DNA of 20,000 nucleotides from an uncultured virus (IMG/VR IMGVR_UViG_3300037467_001324) (IMGVR_UViG_3300037467_001324), one strand, 5' to 3'; shown: positions 4,867 through 19,534, counted from the stretch's first letter. The notes: generated by a model from the sequence alone, not told the origin. A program made the numbers and translations.

Positions 4867-4880
4867 CTCAATTCCCCTAT

Positions 4881-4961
4881 TTAGTGATTGCTGACGAAAT
4901 CCGCCGCGTAGTAAATCGCGGCTAGGATCAGCCCGATTATCAAAGCGACTGCGCCCATCAT
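4881..4961 (-). CDS. Micro membrane peptide, 26 aa (MMGAVALIIGLILAAIYYAADFVSNH)
   Basis: Manual translation; fills the gap between genes; its stop codon lies inside the AATCACTAA repeat. Confidence 0.5.
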   Translation of the reverse strand: MMGAVALIIGLILAAIYYAADFVSNH

Positions 4962-5428: not shown

Positions 5429-5456
5429 TGCGACTCACTCCCTAGTGGTTGATTCG

Positions 5457-5497
5457 ACACTAGAGATTCCTGCGCTCTAGTCAACTCTTAGTTGACT
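5457..5497 (-). promoter_or_regulatory. Leftward early promoter with operator palindrome AGTCAACT-CTT-AGTTGACT
   Basis: TTGACT (5484-5479)-16-TAGTGT (5462-5457); 5479-5497 is the exact reverse complement of 1994-2012. Confidence 0.7.
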
Positions 5498-5574
5498 GCA
5501 TCAACCTCGGTTCGTCGCATCCGATTGCCCTGGCGACAGCTGCTCGAGGCTGCTGTTGTTACGCCGGCAATACG

Positions 5575-5856
5575 GAGACAGCATGGGACAGCATGGCACG
5601 GCTGCCCTGCTACGCTGCGACCTGTGGCACAGCATGAGACGCTATGGGACAACATGAGACAGTGCATCGATCCGCTCGAACAGTCGCGCTGGCACTCCGC
5701 TGCCTGGCCGACGCGCATCCCCGTAACCCTTTGAATTGCGGGTCCTTTCTAGGCGCAACCGGGCGGGCGGGAGGCGCTGAGCCCCGAAAAAACAGCGTTT
5801 TCGGAGGACCTATTAGGCCATAGTGAGCCTGAGACAGCATGGGACGCCTGGGGACG
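5575..5856 (+). repeat. Clusters of 10-bp tandem repeats, consensus G(G/A)GACAGCAT, flanking the putative cos
   Basis: Clusters at 5575-5602, 5626-5663 and 5831-5856. Confidence 0.8.
5739..5786 (+). other. Putative cos site (cosQ plus 12-nt cosN), lambda/Chi-like
   Basis: CGGGTCCTTTC contains lambda cosQ GGGTCCT; 23-24 nt later lies GAGGCGCTGAGC, 9/12 identical to the phage Chi cohesive end as I recall it (GGTGCGCAGAGC). Confidence 0.6.
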
Positions 5857-5881
5857 GTGACCTCGAGGCGATTGAGCGCAC

Positions 5882-6197
5882 CGTCACACCCTCCGAGCCT
5901 GTGACGCACCTGTGACGGTAGCCTGTGACGGTCATTTTCCGCAGAAATCCGCCGCAAAAGGGGCAATCGTCACAGGATCACAGGTGTTTCCCTAAGAAAC
6001 ATTATGAATCCAGGGACTCAAGCCTGACGGCATTGAAATGGACGAGCTCGAGCGCGCAAAATCACCCCTGCTACGATAAGTTATACAAGGAGGAGCCTGT
6101 GATCCTGTGACGATGCGACCTAAAGCTCTGAAATTGCTCGGAAAAAGGCGGCACAGGTAGCCTGTGACGACCGTCACAGGTAAACAGGGGTGTGACG
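5882..6197. repeat. Iteron-like CCTGTGAC(G) array in both orientations; putative replication origin or cosB
   Basis: About 12 copies; perfect inverted pair TCGTCACAGGATCACAGG (5967-5984) / CCTGTGATCCTGTGACGA (6096-6113). Confidence 0.8.
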
Positions 6198-6198
6198 A

Positions 6199-6714
6199 TT
6201 AGCGGCCTAAGCCAGCAATGACGCTCCAACCGTTGCATTCGGTTACGCGGTCGCGCCGCCGCGGCGTTTTCGAGCCTCGCGACCGGCGATCGTCCAAGAA
6301 CATCCAGCAGATTTCGGGTCGACCATTGACCTCCGGAGTGCGTGACCAGAGCTCGGGGTCGAGCCAGAAAGCGGGGTCGCCAGGCTGCCACGGGGCGCTC
6401 AGTTCGAGTCCCGATTTGACCGCAGGGAGTGGCTTCGGCTCAGCTCGAGCGGCCCAACCGAGCTTCCATCCATATTGCTCGGTCCAGATGCGATAGCAGC
6501 CGCCGAAGCAGTCGTTGATGTTCTCCTCGCACCAGAACCGCTGACAGGTCTCGCAGCCCATCACGCTGAGGCCGCAGTTGTACAGCTTCGTGCCGCACGC
6601 CGGGCAGCGCATCATGTCGAGGATCTGGTCGAACGCATCGTAGTTCATGGGGAAGCCGCGGCGCGCGACCCATTGCCGGCGACGTCGCTCGAGGGAGGAC
6701 AGAAGGCTCAACAT
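6199..6714 (-). CDS. Cys/Trp-rich putative zinc-binding protein (start uncertain: 6714 leaderless, or 6648)
   Basis: CPACG...CETC...C motifs; ATG 6714 lies at the predicted TSS of TTGACC-16-TATGCT. Confidence 0.6.
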   Translation of the reverse strand: MLSLLSSLERRRRQWVARRGFPMNYDAFDQILDMMRCPACGTKLYNCGLSVMGCETCQRFWCEENINDCFGGCYRIWTEQYGWKLGWAARAEPKPLPAVKSGLELSAPWQPGDPAFWLDPELWSRTPEVNGRPEICWMFLDDRRSRGSKTPRRRDRVTECNGWSVIAGLGR

Positions 6715-6721
6715 GGACGCA

Positions 6722-6786
6722 AGCATAAGCGAAAAAGTGAGCCGGTCAATTCTTTGTTGACTGACGGTTGAGTCGGACATATACCG
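6722..6786. promoter_or_regulatory. Back-to-back divergent promoters sharing the GTCAA-N7-TTGAC palindrome
   Basis: Rightward TTGACT (6757-6762)-17-TATACC (6780-6785); leftward TTGACC (6749-6744)-16-TATGCT (6727-6722). Confidence 0.65.
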
Positions 6787-6790
6787 ATTC

Positions 6791-7583
6791 GCAGGTCATG
6801 GCACTGCTGCTTGAGCAGCTAGGTCGACACGGTACACCCGCCCGAGGCGGGGACTCCGGCATCTCCCCGAGGCCACAAGGGAGTTGCACAACAGCGCCGC
6901 TGCGGGGTCCTCCCCTTTGCCTTGCAGCGGCGCTTAGAGTTTCAGACTGCCCTGAGTTCCACGACGAAGCGGCGACGGCCAAATCGTGAGATGGAGCAGG
7001 AGCGGCTAGGGCGGCGGGAACCTTGTTCAAGCGAATCGCCGCCCTACGAGTTTGCCGGAGCGTCCTTTGCGTGTCCAACGGGACCGGGTCGTTAGGCGAA
7101 AGCGGGTTCCGACCGCGAAATCGGACGCCTTACCGGACCGCGAGACCCGGTATGACAGCCGGAAAGAACGGTGCTGCGGTTCCGGAGCCGTAGTCGAGGC
7201 GGGAGAGGCAAACCTTCGCGGTCTCGACCAGTTTCAGAGGTGAGCCTCCCCACGGCGCCGGAATCGAACCCCGCCGTTACCGGGCTTACCGCCTCCCACG
7301 GGGACAAGAGGCGGGCTGTGTTCGGCCAGTCAATCTATCGAGACCGCAGGAGCTCGATTAGACCGAACAACTCCTGCTCATTTGCAGGTCGCAGCGGACG
7401 AGGCTTAGGCGCGATTGCTTCGCAGCTGACGTGGAAACGCTCAGGGGCGGTGCAAACCGGAAACGGTCACAAAGCGGTGGGTAGCGTGCGGCTGACCAGA
7501 CTTGCGGTGACCCTGGTCCGCGAGGTTAAAGCTCGACTGGTCAGTCATCCCCTACGGAGAACGCAGTCCGCCAGGGTCACCTT
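6791..7583 (+). ncRNA. Candidate large (~800 nt) structured phage ncRNA with multiple pseudoknots; family not recognised
   Basis: No credible ORF; own promoter; nested long-range helices; G-U pairs consistent only with the + strand; GNRA tetraloops; 3'-terminal pseudoknot. Confidence 0.7.
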
Positions 7584-7678
7584 AAAAATTGGTCCCTGGG
7601 CCGCGTCGCTAACCCGCGAAAATTCGGAAATCTAACACCTTGAGTCGCAATCTTGCATACATTTTTGGGACAATCGGC

Positions 7679-10177
7679 TCACCCGATGAGATCGGCTTCC
7701 TCGAGCGGCGTCACCCTGACATAGGTGCGCTGCCGACCGTAAGCGCCGTGAACGACAGGACTCGCCTGCTGCCAACTGGACGCGATGGCAGCCTTTGACA
7801 TGGCGCGCGCGATCGCTTGCTGGTTGGCAGCTGTGTAGCTGCGTAGATCGCCGCGGAGACACTCGACCCAAATCTGCGGGAGGCACACCTTGTCGCGGTA
7901 GCGCGGCTTCTGGTCCTTATCGAGGTCGTCGAAGCCGCCATCATTGATCGGTGCTGCCAGCCAGGCAGCAATGACGCCGGCCATCCCATCGTCGCTCGTT
8001 TCCATGCGACGTGATTCTTGAAGCCCTGCGGCAATGGCGCGCGATTCATCGTCGCGCAGATGCAGCGGCAGCGTGCCAACGGGTTGAGCAGCCCGCATCT
8101 GCCGGTAGAACAGCACTGCCTCAGCCCATAACTGGTCGACATTGCGCTCCAGCTTCGCGGTATCGATCTCAGCGACGTGGCACGGCATCGGCCAGAAGCG
8201 GCGGCCGCCCGTGTCGTCCTTGAGATATTCGCGGTCGTTGGTCGAGCCGATGAAAATGCACTGCCGCGGGAACTCGCCGGCGCGACGGGCATAGGCGAGG
8301 CGCGCGCGGTCCTTCTTGCGGCTGATGAACGCCTTGATGGCGCGCACGTCCGACCGCTGGAAGCCGGTCAGCTCCGGCAGTTCGAGGATCCACGCGCCCT
8401 GCATTAGCTCGATCATCATTTTTGGGTCGTGGAAATCGCCGTCGAGCTCGGCGAACCACTTGCGGCCGAGTATCTCGATGAAGGTCGACTTGCGCTTGCC
8501 TTGGAGACCCTCGAGGATGACGGCAAAATCGAACTTGTGGCCGGGTTCGAAGATGCGTGTAACCGCGGCAGTCATCATCAATCGCGCGATGTCCAGTGTG
8601 TACGGGTTCGGCTCCGCGGCGAGATAGTCGACGAACAGGCGCTCGACGCGCCGCGTGCCGTCCCATTTGAGGCCGTTGAGGTACTCACGCACCGGATGAA
8701 AGGCGTGGTCGTTCGCCGCAATGACGATCGCCGCTTTGAGATCGCGGTCTGACACCTTGATGCCGTAACCGCCCTGGGTCCGCGGCGCTTCGATCAGCGC
8801 CCGCATTGCGAAATCACGGTCGTCGGACCACAGGCTGCCATTCAGCGGGTCGGCGACGTCCCAAATGCGGCCCTCGAGCTGCACAACAGGCTTCGCCTGG
8901 TTCTTGCGCCGCGGTTCCTTGTAGCCGGGCGAGATGCGCTGGACGGTCTCCTGTGTGAACTCATTGATTTGCGCGAGGCCGACGAACCGAGGGTCGTTGC
9001 GGACGATCAGTTTGACGTTGTGAAGGGTCGGCCGGAACGCGCCTTCCTCGTTCACCTCCATCAGCGAAATCCACCCGAGACCGGCCTCGGCGCCGGCAGC
9101 GAGCACGGACTCGAAATCGTTCCCGGTGGATGGTCCGCCGATCAACGCATCGATGTCGTCGTCGGCTTCCTCCTCATCCTCATCCTCGTCGGCACCTGGC
9201 TCATCGTCGTCGATGTCGTCGAAGGCCTGGAACATCCGGACCTGGTTGGCGACCGCCTTGAGCGTTGCCATGCGCACGGAGTTGGGTTTTTGACGGAAGC
9301 TGTTCCAGACGACTCGCTGGTCCTTCTCGTCGAATTTCGCCGACTGCTCCGAGAACTCCTTCCAGATGTCATAACCGATCTCGTCGCCGCCGAACTCGTG
9401 GTGCAGCGCCATGCCGACCGTCAGCCAACCGTCGCGATCCTCGCAGTATTCCTCGATTGGCAGATCATCGAGGATAGCTTGAGCCTCGTCCTCGGTGAGA
9501 CCGAGCGGCGGCTTTAGGTCGAGGCTGTCCGCGGATGCCGCGTTGTCGAGCATCCCCAATTCTTCAAGCCGTGCGGCCGGGATGCGTGGAAATAGCCCGA
9601 GCATGAGCTCGTCGAGATCGACAGCACGTTCCCAAAGATAAGGTTTGCCCGTGTCGGGGTGAATCGACGGCGGCATAGCAACTTGCTTGCCGGTGCCGAA
9701 CAGCTCGATTTCCCAATCGCGTTTCTTGACCTCACGCCCGAGCTTCTCATCATAGACCATCTTGAAGGTCTCGCTGCGGGCGAGCTTCTTCGACGGGAAC
9801 GCCTTCTCACAGGCAAAATAATAGTGGCGCGACGGTCCGCCTGATCCGGAGATGACGCTCGGAACGCTGTCGGCGATCGCCGGAAACAGCTCGTCGAGTT
9901 TTGCGCGAGCCTCGTCAGCGTAAGCAGGATCGCGGATGTCCAGGTCGATGGCATGGAGGTAGGAGCCATCCACCAACTGCGAGACCTCGCCGAGGCGCAC
10001 GCCGACATTAACGCCGGGCGAGTGCCGTCGCCGAAGCTGCTCGAGCGTGGCGACCGGCTTGGTTGACCAATCCTCGCCGATAGGGCGCTTCGATTTGGGA
10101 TGCAGCCAGTGAATCGCAAAGCCGGCCTCACGGAGAGGGCCGATTTCTGCCAACACCTGTTCGTCAAAGGCAGTCAT
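7679..10177 (-). CDS. Primase-helicase: bifunctional Prim-Pol (AEP) + PriCT-2 + VirE/VapE-like SF3 helicase
   Basis: NVGVRLG, AIDLD, RHYYF, QVAMPPSIHPDTGKPYLW (Prim-Pol); DRDGWLTVGMALHHEF...WKEFS (PriCT-2); LEGLQGKRKST Walker A, FIGSTN, DTGGRRFWP (VirE). Confidence 0.95.
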   Translation of the reverse strand: MTAFDEQVLAEIGPLREAGFAIHWLHPKSKRPIGEDWSTKPVATLEQLRRRHSPGVNVGVRLGEVSQLVDGSYLHAIDLDIRDPAYADEARAKLDELFPAIADSVPSVISGSGGPSRHYYFACEKAFPSKKLARSETFKMVYDEKLGREVKKRDWEIELFGTGKQVAMPPSIHPDTGKPYLWERAVDLDELMLGLFPRIPAARLEELGMLDNAASADSLDLKPPLGLTEDEAQAILDDLPIEEYCEDRDGWLTVGMALHHEFGGDEIGYDIWKEFSEQSAKFDEKDQRVVWNSFRQKPNSVRMATLKAVANQVRMFQAFDDIDDDEPGADEDEDEEEADDDIDALIGGPSTGNDFESVLAAGAEAGLGWISLMEVNEEGAFRPTLHNVKLIVRNDPRFVGLAQINEFTQETVQRISPGYKEPRRKNQAKPVVQLEGRIWDVADPLNGSLWSDDRDFAMRALIEAPRTQGGYGIKVSDRDLKAAIVIAANDHAFHPVREYLNGLKWDGTRRVERLFVDYLAAEPNPYTLDIARLMMTAAVTRIFEPGHKFDFAVILEGLQGKRKSTFIEILGRKWFAELDGDFHDPKMMIELMQGAWILELPELTGFQRSDVRAIKAFISRKKDRARLAYARRAGEFPRQCIFIGSTNDREYLKDDTGGRRFWPMPCHVAEIDTAKLERNVDQLWAEAVLFYRQMRAAQPVGTLPLHLRDDESRAIAAGLQESRRMETSDDGMAGVIAAWLAAPINDGGFDDLDKDQKPRYRDKVCLPQIWVECLRGDLRSYTAANQQAIARAMSKAAIASSWQQASPVVHGAYGRQRTYVRVTPLEEADLIG

Positions 10178-10683: not shown

Positions 10684-11244
10684 ATGAGCATTGAAACAGC
10701 GTTGGCGGAACTGACCGCCGCCGTGGTTGCCAATACGGCGATCCTGGAGAAACTCGAAGCCGGACGCGAAGCAGCGCTTGCGCAGCTCGAGGCGAAGGGT
10801 GAAACCAAGACAACCCGAACTCGTAAGCCGAAGGCCTCCGACGATAGTGCAGGGGATGCGGCGGGAAACGCCAGCGGCGCCGAAGGTGCAAGCACGGGGT
10901 CTCAGGCGGGCGGTGCCACAGCTGCTGTTAAGAGCACCGCGCCGACCGCCGACGAGGCGCTCGTTCGCCAAGTCGCCACTGACTACATCAAGGGCGCCGG
11001 CGACAACGCCGAGGAACGCAAGGCGCGCGCAGGCAACATCAAACGCATCACCGATCATTTCGGAACCGCGGCGCTAGCCGGCGACAACGGCATCAAGGAC
11101 GCAGAGCAACGCGCCCAGGCGGTGTTCTACCTCAAGCGGTATGATGCTGGCCTCGAGGTCAATTTCAGCGCCGAATATGACTTCACCGGCGACCCCACCC
11201 AGGGCGCCGCGGAAGCGGAGGATTCGTTCGACGGAATCGGCTGA
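10684..11244 (+). CDS. Phage replication-module protein with N-terminal coiled coil and Ala/Gly-rich linker
   Basis: ATG 10684 with GAGGAG SD; MSIETALAELTAAV...; acidic C-terminus ending FDGIG. Confidence 0.85.
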   Translation: MSIETALAELTAAVVANTAILEKLEAGREAALAQLEAKGETKTTRTRKPKASDDSAGDAAGNASGAEGASTGSQAGGATAAVKSTAPTADEALVRQVATDYIKGAGDNAEERKARAGNIKRITDHFGTAALAGDNGIKDAEQRAQAVFYLKRYDAGLEVNFSAEYDFTGDPTQGAAEAEDSFDGIG

Positions 11245-11270
11245 CGAATCACTAACTTAGGGAGTCCAAG

Positions 11271-11462
11271 ATGGACCAGAACACGCTTACGAACAAAGAG
11301 AAGGCGATCATCTCCGCCATCAGTTCGGCAGTTACAGGTGGCGTTGGCTACGGTCTGCTGCCGCCCGGTACGCCAGAGGTCGTCAGTCTTATCGGCGCTG
11401 CCGTGCTCGCTGTGACGGCTGCGGTTTACGCCGTGAAGCATCTTCTCAATCCGACCGCGTAA
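11271..11462 (+). CDS. Small two-TM membrane protein (holin-like)
   Basis: GGGAG SD; two hydrophobic segments in 63 aa. Confidence 0.7.
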   Translation: MDQNTLTNKEKAIISAISSAVTGGVGYGLLPPGTPEVVSLIGAAVLAVTAAVYAVKHLLNPTA

Positions 11463-11800: not shown

Positions 11801-12033
11801 ACCGGGAACTTAATCCCTGCACAGATTGCCCGTTTCGGGCTGAACTGAATATCGAGCACGCAATGCTGCGTTCGCAGGTCGAAGCCGGTCAATGGGTTCC
11901 CTGCAAGAACACCCTTCGAGCTCCTGCTGACGGCAGCTTCCAGGCGAAGATCGAAGCCTGGCGACAGGAGGAAGAATGCGCTGGCGCTCGGATGTGGCGG
12001 CGTGATCGACAGCTGCCCGCTATCGCCGCGTGA
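11797..12033 (+). CDS. Small Cys-containing protein (PCTDCPFR...PC...CAG)
   Basis: ORF track with start at ATG 11797; GAGG SD; GTGA overlap with the DUF2800 gene. Confidence 0.7.
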   Translation: MNRELNPCTDCPFRAELNIEHAMLRSQVEAGQWVPCKNTLRAPADGSFQAKIEAWRQEEECAGARMWRRDRQLPAIAA

Positions 12034-13214
12034 TCGCACACGCGAAACTGTCGCCCTCCGGCGCTGACCGATGGATGGTCTGCCCCGGTAGCGTTGCCGC
12101 CGAGGAAGGCCTCCCCGACGAAACCAGCGAGGAAGCCGCCGAAGGCACCTTCGCGCACATGATTAGCGAGGACTGCCTCGCGCTAGGCTTGGACCCTTAC
12201 GATTTCATCGGTCACCGAGCTACCGTCGAAGGCCATTCATTCGAGTGGGACGAGGAGGACGCAGACAACCTCGCGTTCGGCATTTCGCAGATTCGCTCGT
12301 TCGGTGGGCAATTGTACGGCGAGCAGCGCGTCGATCTCACTCACTGGCTTGGCGACGATCAGTTTGGCACACTGGACCGCGCAATCATTCTGCCCGACCT
12401 CATCGTCATCGACGACCTGAAATGGGGTCGCGGGATCCCGGTCAGCCCGGTCGAGAACCGACAACTGTCGCTATATGGACTCGGCTTCTGGCGTGACATC
12501 GCCCGCCATCAGACCAACGCAACTGATTTCCTCATCATCATCGATCAGCCCCGATGCAGTGGCGGCGGAGGCGAATGGCGGACGACACTCGATCAGCTGC
12601 TCGCGTTCGGCGAGGAAGCGCGCGGTGCCGCTGAGCGTACCCGCGATCCCAACGCACCGCGCGTCGCGAGCGAGAAGGGGTGCCGCTTTTGCAAGCGCCG
12701 CGAAGCACCCGGTGGATGTTCGACGCTCGATATGTTCATGCTCGATTTGTTCGGAAAGCAGTTCGACGACCTGGACGACGAAATTATGGTTGGCGGACCA
12801 ATGGAGCTGCCGGTCGTCGTTACGCCCGAACGCAGGAGCTTCATTCTCGATAACCGCAAGCTGTGCGAATCGTGGTTCGACAAGCTCCATGCTCAGGCGC
12901 TCGATGATGCGCTCCACGGGCGCCCATGCGGCGGCAAGAAAGCAGTCGAGGGCCGCAAGTTGGCCGACAAATGGAAGAACCTAGACGACGCTGACATCGC
13001 GCTCCTGCTGATGCTCGGCGACGGCCGCCACAATCTCAAGCTCAAGACACCGACTCAGGTGACGAAAGAACTCAAGCTCAAGGACAACATTCCGCCTGAG
13101 CTGGAGCAGCTGATCGAACGCGGACAGCGAAAGCCGACGCTCGTCAGCGAGCAGGATGCTCGACCTGCAATGCTGATTAACCTCGAGCAGATGTTCGACG
13201 ACCTGGACACTTAG
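12030..13214 (+). CDS. DUF2800 family Cas4-like PD-(D/E)xK exonuclease
   Basis: HAKLSPSGADRWMVCPGS, AAEGTFAH, FGTLD, DLKWGRG, QLSLY, CRFC...C (four Cys, possible Fe-S ligands). Confidence 0.92.
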   Translation: MIAHAKLSPSGADRWMVCPGSVAAEEGLPDETSEEAAEGTFAHMISEDCLALGLDPYDFIGHRATVEGHSFEWDEEDADNLAFGISQIRSFGGQLYGEQRVDLTHWLGDDQFGTLDRAIILPDLIVIDDLKWGRGIPVSPVENRQLSLYGLGFWRDIARHQTNATDFLIIIDQPRCSGGGGEWRTTLDQLLAFGEEARGAAERTRDPNAPRVASEKGCRFCKRREAPGGCSTLDMFMLDLFGKQFDDLDDEIMVGGPMELPVVVTPERRSFILDNRKLCESWFDKLHAQALDDALHGRPCGGKKAVEGRKLADKWKNLDDADIALLLMLGDGRHNLKLKTPTQVTKELKLKDNIPPELEQLIERGQRKPTLVSEQDARPAMLINLEQMFDDLDT

Positions 13215-13267: not shown

Positions 13268-13966
13268 ATGAGTGAAGCACCGAAGCCCGCCGATCCGCGG
13301 ACAGTTCGCCTGAAAATGGTGAGGCTGTCCTTCACGGATTCGCTCAAGGACAAGAAGGCTACCGTCGAGAACGGCACGCCCAAGCACAGTTGTAACCTCA
13401 TCGTCGTGCAGACGCCCGGTGAGGACAAGTTGTCGCAACAGGCCGCAGCCCTGTATAAGGACAACCTCGCCAAGATTCAGTCGGCCATCAAAGCAGCCTG
13501 CATCGAGCAGTGGAGCAAAGAGGACACCTGGAAGGAAATCCAGGAGGATAGCCCGAAGCGGCTTTGCTTCCGCAAAGGCGAGCGGTTCAAGAACAGCGAT
13601 GGCGAGGTCTATAAGGGCTACGCCGGCAATTGGGGCATCAGCGCCAGCGGCCCGAAGGGTGGCGAGCACCGTCCGCTGCTGCTCGATCGCTACAAGCGCC
13701 AGGTCGAGGAGAAGGACATCCTCGAGGTGATGGCGGGCGGCTACTACGGCGATGTCGTCGTGTCGTTCTTTGGCACCGATAAGGGCGGCAAGGGCTTGTT
13801 CTGCTCGGTCGAAGCCATTCGATCGCGCCAGGAAGGCGAACGCCTTGGCGGCGGGCCGCGCGCGAGCGCCGACGATTTCGACGATCTCGACGACGACGAT
13901 TCGTTCAGCGGCACCGCTGCTGGCGGCAGCTCGTCGGGTGGCGACGATTTCGACGGCATCGGCTGA
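13268..13966 (+). CDS. DUF2815 family (gp2.5-like) single-stranded DNA-binding protein
   Basis: VRLSF, PKHSCNLI, GYYGDVVV, GERLGG and an acidic tail; sits between DUF2800 and the polymerase; AGGAG SD. Confidence 0.9.
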   Translation: MSEAPKPADPRTVRLKMVRLSFTDSLKDKKATVENGTPKHSCNLIVVQTPGEDKLSQQAAALYKDNLAKIQSAIKAACIEQWSKEDTWKEIQEDSPKRLCFRKGERFKNSDGEVYKGYAGNWGISASGPKGGEHRPLLLDRYKRQVEEKDILEVMAGGYYGDVVVSFFGTDKGGKGLFCSVEAIRSRQEGERLGGGPRASADDFDDLDDDDSFSGTAAGGSSSGGDDFDGIG

Positions 13967-14026: not shown

Positions 14027-15946
14027 ATGACGAAGCAGCCCGTCGCTTGCGACATTGAATGCTATCGGAACTATTTCCTCGTCGGTCTCAAGCGGATCAG
14101 CGACGGCACGCTGCTGCAATTTGAGTTTTCCGAGCGGTCGCCGCTCGACAAGGAGCGGCTCAAGCGAATCCTGCTCAACCACCGAGTCATCACCTTCAAC
14201 GGTCTGACCTATGATGTCCCGCTGATTTACTACGCGCTCGAGGGCGCGACCAACGAGCAACTCAAGCGGGCGAGCGACCGCATCATTCAGGGCAATGTCA
14301 AGTATTGGGACGTCGAGGACCTGCTCGGCATCCGCATTCCGCGCGAGCTCGATCATATCGATCTTATCGAGCCTCAACCGAACGCCTTCGCGGCGTTGAA
14401 GCTGCTCGCCGGTCGACTGCACTCGCGCACGTTGCAGGACTTGCCTTACGAGCACGACACGATCCTGACGCACGAGCAAATGGACGATGTTGCCGATTAC
14501 AACGGCCACGATCTCGATGACACAATCGACCTGTTCCATGCGCTCAAGGACCGCCTTGAGCTGCGCGAGGCGCTCGGACGGCAATATCTCGAGAACAATC
14601 CTCGCGGCTTCATGTCGAAATCGGATGCGCAGATTGGCGAGGCCATCATCAAGCGCGAGGTCGAGAAGGTCACCGGGCAGAAGGTAAAGAAGGAGCAGAC
14701 GCGCAACGGGGAAACCTTCCCGTACCGCGCGCCGGAGTGGCTCAAGTTCGAGCATCCGGAATTGGTCGAGGTGATGCGCCGCCTGGCCGACACCGAGTTC
14801 GTCGTGAAGGCGAACGGCAAGGTGGATATGCCGCCGTTCCTGCACAATCGCGCCGTTCGTATCGGCGAGACCGAGTACGCGATGGGGATTGGTGGTCTGC
14901 ACTCGACCGAGAAGGAGCGAGCTGTCGTCGCCGACGATGAGCATGTCCTCATCGACTTTGACGTTGCGTCCTACTACCCGGCCATCATCATCGGCTCGGG
15001 CCTTTATCCGAAATCGCTCGGACGGCCATTCATCCAGGTGTTCGACAAGATCCGGCAGCAGCGCGTCGCAGCGAAGCGGGCCGGCGACACGACGACCGCC
15101 GAGGGTCTGAAAATCGCCCTGAACGGCTGCTTCGGCAAGCTCGGTAGCCCTTATTCCATCCTTTACGCGCCGCACCTGATGATCGCGGTGACACTGACGG
15201 GCCAGCTGGCGCTGCTTATGCTCATAGAGTGGGCGGAAGCAGCAGGCATCAAGGTCGTCTCAGGGAACACAGACGGTGTCGTGTTCCACTGTCCGGTCGA
15301 TCTCGAGCCGAAGCTCATGGAACTGACGAAGCGGTGGGAGGAGCAGACCGGTTTTGAACTCGAGTCCACGCGGTACTCGGGTCTCTATAGCCAAAGCGTC
15401 AACAGCTACATCGCCATCAAGGAGAACGGGAAGGCGAAGCGGAAAGGACCGCTCAGCAACCCGCTCAAAGAAACGCCTCCGGACCTGCGCACGCAGATGA
15501 TGACGTCGCCGAGCATGAACGTCTGCGCAGACGCAGTCGTCGACTGGCTGACGAAAGGGATTCCCGTCGAGCAAACCATCCGCGAGCGCGACGACATCCG
15601 CGATTTTGTGACGGTCGTGAAGGTCGATGGTGGTGGCACCTGGCGCGGGAAATATCTCGGCAAATACGTTCGGTTCATCTGGTCAAAGGATGGCGACCCG
15701 ATTCTGTCGAAGAAGGCCCATCCGACCACCGGCAATCATAAGAAGGTCAGCAAGAGCGACGGCTGCCGCCCGGTCATGGTGCTGCCTGACGAGCTGCCAA
15801 TCGACATCGATTATGACCGCTACATCGCCGAGGCGCGCGAAATCCTCATGGCAATCGGCGCCGACCGACGCCCGCCGCCGCAGGTGAAGGTGCGCGTGTA
15901 TGCGGCGCAGCGGTACGATTGGTTGGCGCTGGCGATCGCGGCATGA
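14027..15946 (+). CDS. Family B DNA polymerase with 3'-5' exonuclease domain
   Basis: ExoI CDIECY, ExoII FNGLTYD, ExoIII YNGHD; polymerase motifs DFDVASYYP, KIALNGCFGK, SGNTDG. Confidence 0.92.
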   Translation: MTKQPVACDIECYRNYFLVGLKRISDGTLLQFEFSERSPLDKERLKRILLNHRVITFNGLTYDVPLIYYALEGATNEQLKRASDRIIQGNVKYWDVEDLLGIRIPRELDHIDLIEPQPNAFAALKLLAGRLHSRTLQDLPYEHDTILTHEQMDDVADYNGHDLDDTIDLFHALKDRLELREALGRQYLENNPRGFMSKSDAQIGEAIIKREVEKVTGQKVKKEQTRNGETFPYRAPEWLKFEHPELVEVMRRLADTEFVVKANGKVDMPPFLHNRAVRIGETEYAMGIGGLHSTEKERAVVADDEHVLIDFDVASYYPAIIIGSGLYPKSLGRPFIQVFDKIRQQRVAAKRAGDTTTAEGLKIALNGCFGKLGSPYSILYAPHLMIAVTLTGQLALLMLIEWAEAAGIKVVSGNTDGVVFHCPVDLEPKLMELTKRWEEQTGFELESTRYSGLYSQSVNSYIAIKENGKAKRKGPLSNPLKETPPDLRTQMMTSPSMNVCADAVVDWLTKGIPVEQTIRERDDIRDFVTVVKVDGGGTWRGKYLGKYVRFIWSKDGDPILSKKAHPTTGNHKKVSKSDGCRPVMVLPDELPIDIDYDRYIAEAREILMAIGADRRPPPQVKVRVYAAQRYDWLALAIAA

Positions 15947-16296
15947 CGCGCGGCAATGCACAGCAGCGTCGCCAGCGATGGCTGCGATACGAATGGTTCC
16001 GCGACCCCGCCTGCCGATATTGTGGACGAATCACCAAATTGTTGGGTGACGATGAGCCTGTAAGCGACGACATGGCGACCTGCGACCACTACGTTCCGCA
16101 GGCTAAAGAGGGGCCTGACAAGCCGTTCAATTGGCGATTGAGTTGCCGAAAATGCAACGCCGACAAAGGTGACATGCTACCTGAAATGTGGCTGCTCGTC
16201 GGGGAGGTGGACTTCACACCGCCTGTCATCGAACCTGTCGAAGCAAGAACTCCAACTGCGCTCGAGATGGCATTCCGCCGCGCCGGCCTCGGCTGA
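15943..16296 (+). CDS. HNH endonuclease
   Basis: CRYCG...TCDHYVP...N...CRKCNADKGD; ATGA overlap with the polymerase. Confidence 0.9.
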   Translation: MTRGNAQQRRQRWLRYEWFRDPACRYCGRITKLLGDDEPVSDDMATCDHYVPQAKEGPDKPFNWRLSCRKCNADKGDMLPEMWLLVGEVDFTPPVIEPVEARTPTALEMAFRRAGLG

Positions 16297-17792
16297 TGGA
16301 CACACAGACCGCCGTCGATTTCCTCCGGCTATCGGTACTCGGCGGACTCAACGCGCCGATAGGGCCGATTCCATTCGACCCTTACCACATCCGTAAGCGC
16401 CGGCTCCGTGACTATCAGGAGGAGATGATCCTCGAGGGCATCAGTTACATGCGCCTCGGAGTCCGGCGTATCCTGTTCCAGCTGCCGACCGGAGGCGGCA
16501 AGACCGTCATGGCGGCAGCGATGCACGGCAGCGCAATGGACCTAGCCCTGACATCGGAGTTCATCGTCCACCGCAAGGAACTCGTCGACCAGACGAGCCA
16601 CACGTTCACTCAGTTCGGGATCCCGCACGGTTTCATCGCGGCCGGACATCCGTTGCTCACTGACGAGCTCGTGTCGATCGCTGGCGTCGGAACCTTGGTC
16701 AATCGGCTCGAGCAAATGCTCCCGCCGAAGCTCGCCGTGGTCGACGAATGCCACCACGCGACGGCAGCCTCATGGCAGCGCGTCCTAGAGGCTTATGGCG
16801 AGTCCTTCGTCATCGGTCTCACCGCCACGCCGGAGCGGCTCGATGGTAAGGGCCTCGATGACCAGTTCGACGTGATGATTAAGGGTCCACCCGTCGCCGA
16901 ACTCATCGCTCGCGGCTACCTAGCGGATTTCGACTATTATGCGCCGGGGCAACCCGACCTCACCGGTATCCATACCACCGCAGGCGATTTCAACCGCGGC
17001 GAGATTGCCGAGCTGATGGATAAGCCGAAGCTCATCGGCGATGTCGTCGAGCATTATCTTCGGCTCGCTCCAGGTCAGGCGGGCATCGTGTTCGCAGCGA
17101 GCCGTGAGCACAGCCGCCACATGGCGGAGGCGTTCAACAGCCACGGGATTCGCGCGGCGCATGTCGACGGCACCATGCCGGACAAGGAGCGCGATCGCGT
17201 CGTCGCTGCCTTCCGTGCCGGCGAAATCAGCGTGATGACGAACGTGGACCTGTTCGGCGAAGGCTTTGACGTTCCTGGCATCGTTTATTGCGGTCTCGCG
17301 CGCCCGACGAAATCCCTGTCGCTGTTCATGCAGCAATGCGGCCGCGCGCTAAGGATGTTCGACGGTAAGCCTAACGCCATCCTCGCCGATCACGCCGGAA
17401 ACGTGCTGCGGCACGGTCTCCCCGACGACGAACGCGAATGGAGCCTCAAGGGTCGCGTCGTGCGGCAGCGCGGCCCAGGCGAGAATGACGCGCTCCCGGT
17501 TCGGCAGTGCAAGGTCTGCTTCCGCGTATCGCCGTCGACCGTGACTCAGTGTCCCGGCTGCGGCGAGGAGTTCCCCGTCCAGGCGCGCAAGCTCGAGCAA
17601 GAGGACGGCCAATTGACGAAGGTCGAGCGTGAGGCACTCAAGCGGCGACGTGCGATCGACCGTAAAATCGAGGAGCGCGCCTGCAAGAGTCCGGACGATT
17701 TCATCGCTCTAGCGAAGGCCCGCGGTTACGCCAACCCTCGAGGGTGGGCGAAGGTGCAATGGAAGCTGCGTAAAGGCGGGAAAATCCGATGA
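16296..17792 (+). CDS. Superfamily 2 DExH helicase with C-terminal zinc finger
   Basis: LRDYQ, LPTGGGKT, VDECHH, GLTATP, EGFDVP, QQCGRALR, CKVC...CPGC; TGATG coupling. Confidence 0.93.
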   Translation: MDTQTAVDFLRLSVLGGLNAPIGPIPFDPYHIRKRRLRDYQEEMILEGISYMRLGVRRILFQLPTGGGKTVMAAAMHGSAMDLALTSEFIVHRKELVDQTSHTFTQFGIPHGFIAAGHPLLTDELVSIAGVGTLVNRLEQMLPPKLAVVDECHHATAASWQRVLEAYGESFVIGLTATPERLDGKGLDDQFDVMIKGPPVAELIARGYLADFDYYAPGQPDLTGIHTTAGDFNRGEIAELMDKPKLIGDVVEHYLRLAPGQAGIVFAASREHSRHMAEAFNSHGIRAAHVDGTMPDKERDRVVAAFRAGEISVMTNVDLFGEGFDVPGIVYCGLARPTKSLSLFMQQCGRALRMFDGKPNAILADHAGNVLRHGLPDDEREWSLKGRVVRQRGPGENDALPVRQCKVCFRVSPSTVTQCPGCGEEFPVQARKLEQEDGQLTKVEREALKRRRAIDRKIEERACKSPDDFIALAKARGYANPRGWAKVQWKLRKGGKIR

Positions 17793-19223: not shown

Positions 19224-19227
19224 CCGA

Positions 19228-19534
19228 GTCTCACGGCGTCCCATGCTGTGCCATGCTGTTTCGGTGCCTGTGCAGTAAGAATTACAGTAACTGCCGAATG
19301 AGTTAAGCCAAAAAACTTAATACATTCAAGTGATTAGGCAGTTTAAGTCGAGTCCCGTTGGGGTCACCAGACGCTTTCGTCCCATAGCGTCCCATGCCAT
19401 CCCAAGCGTGAAAATACCACCTGAAAAACCGAGTTGTTTCAGAGTGTCATGGCGTCCCATGCCGTCCCATGCCTTCCGGATTGCCACGCAGTAAGAAGCG
19501 CAGTAAGTGAGTCCCACGGCTCGGAGTTACTGTA
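19228..19534 (+). mobile_element. attP region: tRNA 3'-end core (19348-19369), CAGTAA arm-type repeats and 10-bp GTCCCATGC repeats
   Basis: TCGAGTCCCGTTGGGGTCACCA is a T-loop/acceptor/CCA end without a 5' half (likely tRNA-Glu); CAGTAA pairs at 19271-19290 and 19488-19507, TTACTGTA at 19527. Confidence 0.85.

Follow-up and report, generated by a model that had tools for sequence, protein, structure and literature searches.

What does a phage genome hold in the roughly 890 nt of non-coding DNA that lie beside its primase gene? The window analysed here, 20,000 nt from an uncultured virus (IMGVR_UViG_3300037467_001324), is a phage replication region of high GC content (~61%), and a sequence-only reading of it had taken 6791-7583 on the + strand for an ORF-free, ~800-nt giant structured RNA located between a cos/ori region and the primase, closed by nested long-range helices and belonging either to a divergent branch of GOLLD or ROOL or to a new class. 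We examined this interval for coding potential, known RNA families, relatives, covariation and transcription signals.

Genomic setting and relatives of the interval

The genes around the interval were identified as follows:
6199-6714 (−), gene for a 171-aa protein, left of the RNA interval; the ORF as listed extends to 6780
7679-10177 (−), PrimPol/PriCT-2/VapE primase-helicase, by family match
12030-13214, Cas4-like exonuclease, by family match
13268-13966, Gp2.5-like SSB, by family match
14027-15946, DNA polymerase, by family match
16188-17792, helicase, by family match

Judged by the primase, the nearest named phages are ~68-kb Casjensviridae of Rhodobacter capsulatus (46% identity), in which the primase is gene 1 and adjoins the genome end; similarity between the terminal non-coding DNA of those phages and the window's gap was not found. 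Family searches found no integrase in the 20-kb window. The true start of the 171-aa gene appears to be the ATG at 6714, as judged from alignment with its homologue in a second viral contig (L007, IMGVR_UViG_3300037418_002260). The 171-aa protein has six relatives in a collection of 5.8 billion proteins, plus one viral locus, and no match in Pfam or PHROG; its AlphaFold model (mean pLDDT 52.7) was too poor for a structure search. It has a Cys-rich N-terminal part and the invariant motif AFWLDPELWSRTP.V.GRP.ICWM.

Further left, 5430-6198 (~770 nt) is packed with repeats and lacks convincing genes. Units of the GAGACAGCATGGGACAGCATGG type occupy 5575-5857 and recur in inverted form at 19226-19472, many CCTGTGACG units are present, and a 50-nt inverted repeat is formed by 5935-5984/6096-6145. 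This region looks like an origin, a partition site or a regulator-binding region, and is probably what had been called the cos/ori region. Another repeated unit of ~34 nt (TCAATTCCCCTTTTTAGTGATTCG...) stands just before gene starts, on the coding strand, at 422-455, 1945-1978 and 4868-4901, with an inverted copy at 11244-11273, and may serve this phage as a common leader or ribosome-binding region.

The interval is not free of ORFs in the literal sense, as two overlap it (7171-7635, +, 154 aa; 6746-7078, −, 110 aa), but neither matches Pfam or PHROG and no reading frame is common to the window and L007. Translated in any frame, the two align over 33 aa at most; indels of 25, 4, 1, 3 and 1 nt shift every frame, and a conserved ORF thus does not explain the interval. 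A cmscan of the whole window against Rfam 15 (4227 models), a check proposed with the original claim, gave 0 matches at the gathering thresholds, and 6600-7800 at E up to 10 gave only four chance matches (miRNA, MRP, scaRNA). The loci of the relatives described below had no match in either the gathering or the E-value mode. Models of GOLLD, ROOL, group I/II introns, RNase P, tmRNA, 6S, ribozymes and riboswitches in Rfam 15 are all among those that did not match. ARAGORN called 0 tRNA genes and no tmRNA in the window, the G001 and G002 loci and L007; a tRNA-like T arm at 7259-7269 on the − strand was dropped because it is not conserved in L007. By blastn, 50,697 phage records contained no match at 1e-5, the cores of the window and of one relative (G004) gave only chance matches there (E about 5-6), and no isolate of the phage collection carries the core. 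Searching the literature for the motif strings returned nothing except one unrelated primer match, and a description of such an RNA was not found at the level of listings.

Relatives were sought among viral contigs with a 14-mer of the loop of hairpin Pc (see below) as bait, which returned at least 120 loci. Three flanking signatures accompany the 14-mer in 4 of 120 loci and in no other among the matches listed: these are L007's contig and three further records (G001, G002 and G004), so that four relatives of the window RNA, all in uncultured viral contigs, were obtained among the matches listed. Four other motifs, scanned as exact words against viral contigs, turned up only L007's contig or chance matches in coding sequence, and a 16-mer scan of metagenomes gave at least 119 loci, all of them chance among the matches listed. 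Scanning one genome per species (185,579 species) for a loop pattern that would fit just two of the five known members gave five chance matches, none with flanking similarity. Two covariance models built from two sequences (R1 and R2) found nothing in the relatives' loci. A third, R3, built on all five members, scores these at 65-108 bits and had no match in the complete records of four phages with related primases, RcMcDreamy among them, or in 154 bacterial genomes (3 + 151 of one class), results that mean not found in the genomes searched rather than absent. The sequencing runs listed as carrying the window sequence are 11 DNA runs from soil and rhizosphere; there was no RNA run among them, and no transcript was seen.

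The five members have different neighbours. L007 has the gene order of the window (primase, gap, 171-aa homologue), with the homologue 54% identical to the window protein; the 171-aa gene adjoins the RNA in these two only, and not in G001, G002 or G004. G001 (68,589 nt) has a primase 69% identical to the window's, convergent with the RNA, with an MmcB-like gene in between. This gene (PF06319; 4253-4783, +, in that record) overlaps the primase stop and is absent from the window. In G002 (47,651 nt) the RNA is convergent with a tyrosine integrase gene, and terminase gpA and a C5 methylase are encoded upstream of it. The element of G004 (42,558 nt) has the gene of a 304-aa protein without family matches on one side and a Phage_capsid_2 gene on the other. 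The location next to the primase therefore holds for three members (window, L007, G001), with an integrase or a 304-aa gene and a capsid gene taking its place in the other two. The non-coding spans able to hold the RNA measure ~280 (G004), 420 (G002), 440 (L007), 890 (window) and 975 nt (G001), so a size of ~800 nt is not a property of the class. Judged by sequence, then, the predicted RNA family spans five viral contigs, which represent three or more distinct types of genome, and its differing neighbours suggest a stand-alone accessory RNA gene.

A conserved core with movable modules

The features of the predicted RNA, all on the + strand, are, from 5' to 3':
6787-6892 (+), 5' domain of three hairpins, common to the window, L007 and G001
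6893-6934 (+), hairpin P4, in the window and L007; other sequence stands there in G001
6938-6946 (+), linker AGTTTCAGA, the 5' member of the pair of 9-nt direct repeats bordering the 292-nt module
6947-7238 (+), 292-nt module, absent from L007, ending with the second AGTTTCAGA (7230-7238)
7241-7246/7283-7288 (+), stem Pa; a G7240-C7289 pair is possible, giving a hairpin over 7240-7289
7247-7253 (+), UCCCCAC in the Pa loop, invariant in all five members
7253-7257/7272-7276 (+), Pb, a variable hairpin inside the Pa loop
7289-7295/7308-7314 (+), Pc, 7 bp, closing the invariant 12-nt loop CCACGGGGACAA
7319-7325/7363-7369 (+), outer stem of Pd, 1 compensatory pair
7324-7331 (+), conserved GGCCAGUC, after Pc
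7337-7342/7353-7358 (+), inner hairpin of Pd, 3 compensatory pairs
7346-7352/7371-7377 (+), pseudoknot of the inner-hairpin loop with a downstream strand, 3 compensatory pairs
7392-7410 and 7457-7499 (+), post-core blocks, the former GCGGACGAGGCTTAGGC, conserved with G001
7500-7678 (+), variable 3' tail, reaching the primase stop codon

A core of ~140 nt (7240-7377) is common to all five members. Stem Pa (consensus GUGAGCY/RGCUUAC), which had been proposed as 7239-7246/7283-7290, is kept in five of five sequences, with 30/30 cells paired and one compensatory pair (C-G to U-A in G004). In Pc, 35/35 cells are paired and 5 of the 7 pairs covary over the five sequences; the invariance of its CCACGGGGACAA loop is partly by construction, as this loop served as the search bait. 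The outer stem of Pd (proposed as 7320-7325/7363-7368, and likewise borne out by its compensatory pair), the inner hairpin and the pseudoknot contain no broken pair in the window, L007 and G001. The pseudoknot has 7 pairs, and its downstream strand starts 2 nt after the outer stem. Pd differs in G002 and G004, yet an outer stem, an inner hairpin and a loop-to-downstream complement follow in the same order in both, by eye, again with a 2-nt spacer before the complement; in G002 simultaneous pairing of the pseudoknot is doubtful, as the loop has only 5 nt. The UCCCC of the Pa loop could pair with GGGGA, which would lock Pa onto Pc.

Covariation carries the case for structure. Across the window, L007 and G001, all 99 of 99 cells in 33 pairs are paired and 11 pairs are changed on both sides, a number reached by 0 of 500 shuffles (slid controls gave at most 2); these shuffle statistics are inflated by the relatedness of the members, of which there are only five, three of them close kin, too few for statistics of the R-scape type. 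For Pa and Pc over all five sequences, 65/65 cells of 13 pairs are paired and 6 pairs are compensatory. When the core of the window is compared with that of L007, the 62 paired columns contain 13 substitutions, every one of them compensated, and the 71 unpaired columns contain 8. Folding energy, the other yardstick suggested by the sequence-only reading, gave a mixed result. The whole 793 nt folds better than its shuffles (z = −3.93 on the + strand and −2.28 on the − strand, 20 shuffles each), but the L007 RNA does not stand out (z = −0.85 and −0.73, respectively), and the five cores on the + strand (z = −2.25, 0.32, 0.04, 0.40 and −1.32) are ordinary in four of five cases. By energy the case for an RNA would be weak; as most members are not above chance, it rests on covariation.

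The structured modules around the core are specific to lineages, and support differs from one to the next. The 5' domain includes a CCCG/CGGG hairpin, GCAA-capped in G001, and a CUCC/GGAG hairpin with the conserved loop GAGGCCACA. None of its 25 consensus pairs is compensatory, and the alignment of the window with L007 has 34 gap columns, each of them in a loop, so that this domain would be supported by the placement of indels, without compensatory pairs. P4, proposed earlier as 6893-6907/6920-6934, is upheld by the comparison with L007 (13 pairs, 1 compensatory pair and 2 GU/GC changes). Part of the 292-nt module, 7050-7240, is homologous to a segment that lies downstream of the core in G001 (74.6% over 114 nt, E 1e-14), and 11 of 51 consensus pairs are compensatory between the two; the module is thus genuinely structured and has been relocated. 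The linker AGTTTCAGA (AGTTTAAGA or AGTTTAG in G001) was observed at module borders in several members and may be a recombination point for the gain, loss and movement of modules. The post-core blocks are 95% (over 19 nt) and 81% (over 48 nt) identical to G001, from which we conclude that the window element spans at least 6793-7500. In the window, then, the RNA is long because of its movable 292-nt module and long tail.

All of the complementary segments and the three GNRA-capped hairpin sequences that had been pointed out are present as described, as is TTGACT-17-TATACC. The relatives nevertheless contradict the architecture in which nested long-range helices would close a 5' domain: none of the pairings 6795-6800/7151-7156, 6826-6831/7070-7075 and 6854-6861/7053-7060 is conserved. 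Their 5' strands are kept in L007 (two unchanged, 6826-6831 with one substitution), but their 3' strands lie in 6947-7238, which is missing from L007 and has its counterpart downstream of the core in G001, leaving these helices unsupported.

Two further observations concern variation between members. In contigs from soil and rhizosphere runs, other sequence connects the 5' part with 7240 (6908-7240 replaced): 197 other letters in the middle part in run X8, and a short different stretch in run X10. Several variants of the middle part thus coexist in such samples, and G001 confirms such variants. In G002, the 3' part of the RNA (~6300-6395, +) contains a tRNA-like T arm GGGGTTCAATTCCCC (CCGGGG-TTCAATT-CCCCGG) that adjoins the 3' strand of a closing 15-bp helix, ~80 nt from the tyrosine integrase stop. 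ARAGORN called no tRNA at this T arm; the arm may serve as an attP core, or else represent a tRNA-like module within the RNA.

Strand and putative promoter

RNAalifold scored the two strands nearly equally (−52.5 versus −52.95 and −54.45 versus −51.85). Several other features favour the + strand, in agreement with the original assignment. The G7242-U7287 wobble in Pa is invariant in all five members and would be an A-C mismatch on the opposite strand; wobbles that arise by a single change (U-G in the inner Pd stem and in Pb of L007, G-U in Pc of G002) point the same way. In G004 the element is co-oriented with both flanking genes, and in G002 a 13-bp terminator and TTGACA-17-CATAAA precede the RNA on the same strand. 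Finally, TTGAC(T/A) is found upstream in five of five members: in G001 at a window-like distance before the conserved start, and in G002 and G004 before the core region (TTGACT 29 nt before the element in G004). Over 6600-7600 there is also a purine excess on the + strand, as on sense strands elsewhere in the window.

The sites upstream of the RNA in the window are:
6722-6749 (−), promoter-like site TTGACC-16-TATGCT of the leftward 171-aa gene, from a consensus scan
6744-6763 (palindromic), GGTCAATTCTTTGTTGACT, conserved in L007, made of two back-to-back −35-like hexamers
6757-6785 (+), putative RNA promoter TTGACT-17-TATACC (TTGACT 6757-6762, TATACC 6780-6785), identical in L007 except at two spacer positions

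Transcription from the putative promoter would start near 6792, and the block from −35 to ~+30 is nearly identical in L007 even though the neighbouring protein is 54% identical. Its −10 appears weak: the consensus scan misses it because it has no T at the last −10 position. The same scan called none of the upstream sites of the five members, and the leftward TTGACC-16-TATGCT is the only consensus promoter in 6500-7900. The TTGACT hexamer is weak evidence for a rightward promoter when taken alone, as it is one half of the palindrome, the other half being the −35 of the leftward site. GGTCAATTCTTTGTTGACT is a third copy (16/19, by eye) of a 19-bp palindrome, AGTCAAC-N5-GTTGACT, of which two perfect copies (1994-2012 and 5479-5497) lie upstream of leftward genes; each of the three copies stands 30-50 nt upstream of a leftward gene start. 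The palindrome is probably the operator of a single regulator, overlapping the −35 of early promoters and shared with the leftward promoters, and its presence here suggests common control with early genes. The other two copies have no −10-like hexamer 17 nt downstream (by eye), and the + strand TTGACT could accordingly be an operator half-site only. Neither strand showed an intrinsic terminator at the 3' end of the window RNA, and none was found at the 3' ends of the other members either.

Possible roles and comparison with known RNAs

We think it somewhat better than an even bet that the interval encodes a stand-alone non-coding RNA on the + strand, of a phage family that would be previously undescribed and would act in trans as a folded particle. 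It would be transcribed from its own promoter, TTGACT-17-TATACC, and, since this promoter sits on a palindrome that also marks two leftward early promoters, it would be an early RNA under the same regulator. Its binding or active surface would consist of the invariant loops, and the most likely target would be a host or phage protein (with the RNA as scaffold or decoy) or other copies of the RNA itself. Such an RNA would behave as an accessory, 'moron'-like gene moving between phages: changing neighbourhoods, a promoter-like site of its own and patchy presence argue for a self-contained trans-acting accessory RNA and against a role within the machinery of the primase or the origin. A more far-reaching proposal, which we regard as rather unlikely, is a third kind of 'giant ornate' phage RNA with a catalytic or self-assembling core, forming an early RNA-only or RNA-protein particle whose peripheral modules would be exchanged among phages through recombination at the linker AGUUUCAGA; the palindromic GGCC in the loops GAGGCCACA and GGCCAGUC, together with UCCCC/GGGGA, could then give kissing contacts.

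Next to the trans-acting folded RNA, which we rank first, we place a cis-acting element of the riboswitch or attenuator kind, in which the pseudoknotted core senses a ligand or protein and decides read-through into the gene downstream (the capsid gene in sense in G004, the primase or integrase in antisense in the other four). We give it a small chance. Its invariant loop and junction nucleotides amid freely covarying stems do look like an aptamer, in G004 the capsid gene starts ~130 nt downstream of the element, in the same orientation, and each of the other four members is directed towards the 3' end of a convergent gene without an intervening terminator. What speaks against such a switch is the lack of a conserved terminator/anti-terminator alternative or of a helix sequestering a ribosome-binding site after the core, the 90 to ~600 nt of variable sequence before the downstream gene, the extra conserved modules (5' domain, 7050-7240), which would be unexpected, and the lack of an Rfam riboswitch match. 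Three readings rank below it. A transcript belonging to a nearby origin of replication (as R-loop, primer or activator, beside the primase-helicase gene) would fit the three of five members that are adjacent and convergent to a PrimPol/PriCT-2/VapE primase, the iteron-rich non-coding stretch 5430-6198, 600 nt away, and the genome ends with repeats that the Rhodobacter phages (46% primase identity) have at the equivalent position. We consider it improbable, as G002 (integrase) and G004 (304-aa gene/capsid) have no primase nearby, R3 did not find the RNA in the four primase-related phages searched, and covariation in the pseudoknot indicates a folded RNA, not an RNA-DNA hybrid.

Another possibility is that the phages carry, as or near an attachment site, a partial copy of a non-coding RNA gene of the host, in which case the covariation would record the evolution of that gene. 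The G002 element ends ~90 nt from the 3' end of the tyrosine integrase gene, a frequent place for attP, it is followed by the tRNA-like T arm with its 15-bp helix, and IMG/VR labels G001, G002 and G004 as provirus. Set against this are the scan of 185,579 species, whose five matches lacked flanking similarity (with a pattern fitting two of five members), the failure of R3 to find anything in 154 bacterial genomes, the promoter-like site and full 5' part of each copy, which are normally missing from att copies, and the window itself, in which no integrase was found; a host origin thus seems very unlikely to us. About equally remote is a self-processing RNA, either a new self-cleaving ribozyme or a precursor cut into smaller RNAs. 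A compact pseudoknotted core with invariant unpaired nucleotides would be typical of small ribozymes, the modules appear shuffled around the repeated linker AGUUUCAGA, and the tRNA-like element of G002 could recruit RNase P; there is, however, no Rfam ribozyme match and no sequence feature that indicates a cleavage site. We give least credence of all to the interval not acting as RNA, that is, to a fast-evolving small protein gene or to binding sites or cruciforms at the DNA level. ORFs of 110-154 aa do overlap it and RNAalifold energies do not separate the strands, but the indels break every frame, the ORFs have no family match, and a pseudoknot with three compensatory pairs and wobbles confined to one strand would be unexpected of sites in duplex DNA.

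For the trans-acting folded RNA that we favour, the nearest known kind appears to be the large ornate phage RNAs GOLLD and ROOL, which we take to be Rfam RF01998 and RF03087; the Rfam 15 models place the window RNA in neither, so of the two alternatives offered by the sequence-only reading it is the new class, with covarying relatives, that is favoured. As described in PMC12286853, GOLLD is phage-encoded, often above 800 nt and ornate with pseudoknots, and combines a region conserved in all members with a less conserved one; its linker shows little similarity between homologues and sometimes holds tRNAs, and it is frequently located beside phage tRNA genes. The same account presents ROOL as a large RNA of phages and prophages with multiple pseudoknots and no known protein partner, and gives the function of both RNAs as unknown (PMC12286853). 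Measured against this description, the window RNA resembles GOLLD in combining a conserved core with variable modules, and in the tRNA-like element of G002. It differs in having no sequence or structure match to the Rfam model, in lacking tRNA genes nearby (ARAGORN), and in hosts and habitat, its family being found in high-GC viral contigs and in soil and rhizosphere DNA runs. As described there, ROOL is likewise large, phage-encoded and pseudoknotted, whereas the window RNA has no Rfam match, other core motifs and a location away from tRNA islands.

Two smaller kinds of RNA invite comparison. The pRNA of phi29 is a stand-alone structured RNA of ~170 nt, made from an early promoter near the genome end in protein-primed podoviruses, and works as a multimer through loop-loop pairing. 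The window RNA is similarly a stand-alone structured phage RNA with what we infer to be an early promoter near a genome end, but its family appears to have no similarity to pRNA, and the capsid neighbourhood in G004 is its one link to packaging genes. With pseudoknotted riboswitch aptamers it shares invariant loop and junction nucleotides, covarying stems and an H-type pseudoknot; unlike them, it has no conserved expression platform, and four of five copies have no co-oriented gene downstream.

Large structured RNAs without a protein-coding role are, to our knowledge, rare in bacteria and phages. The handful of classes known, GOLLD, ROOL, OLE and raiA, were recently found to form unexpected assemblies, and their functions are still open. 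The family described here would add a further class of large RNA, with a small, sharply defined and strongly covarying core around which modules are gained, lost and moved. The small size of this core suits both structure probing and cryo-EM, which makes it a tractable object, and the jumps of the RNA from one neighbourhood to another (primase, integrase, capsid) suggest an accessory function that is self-contained.
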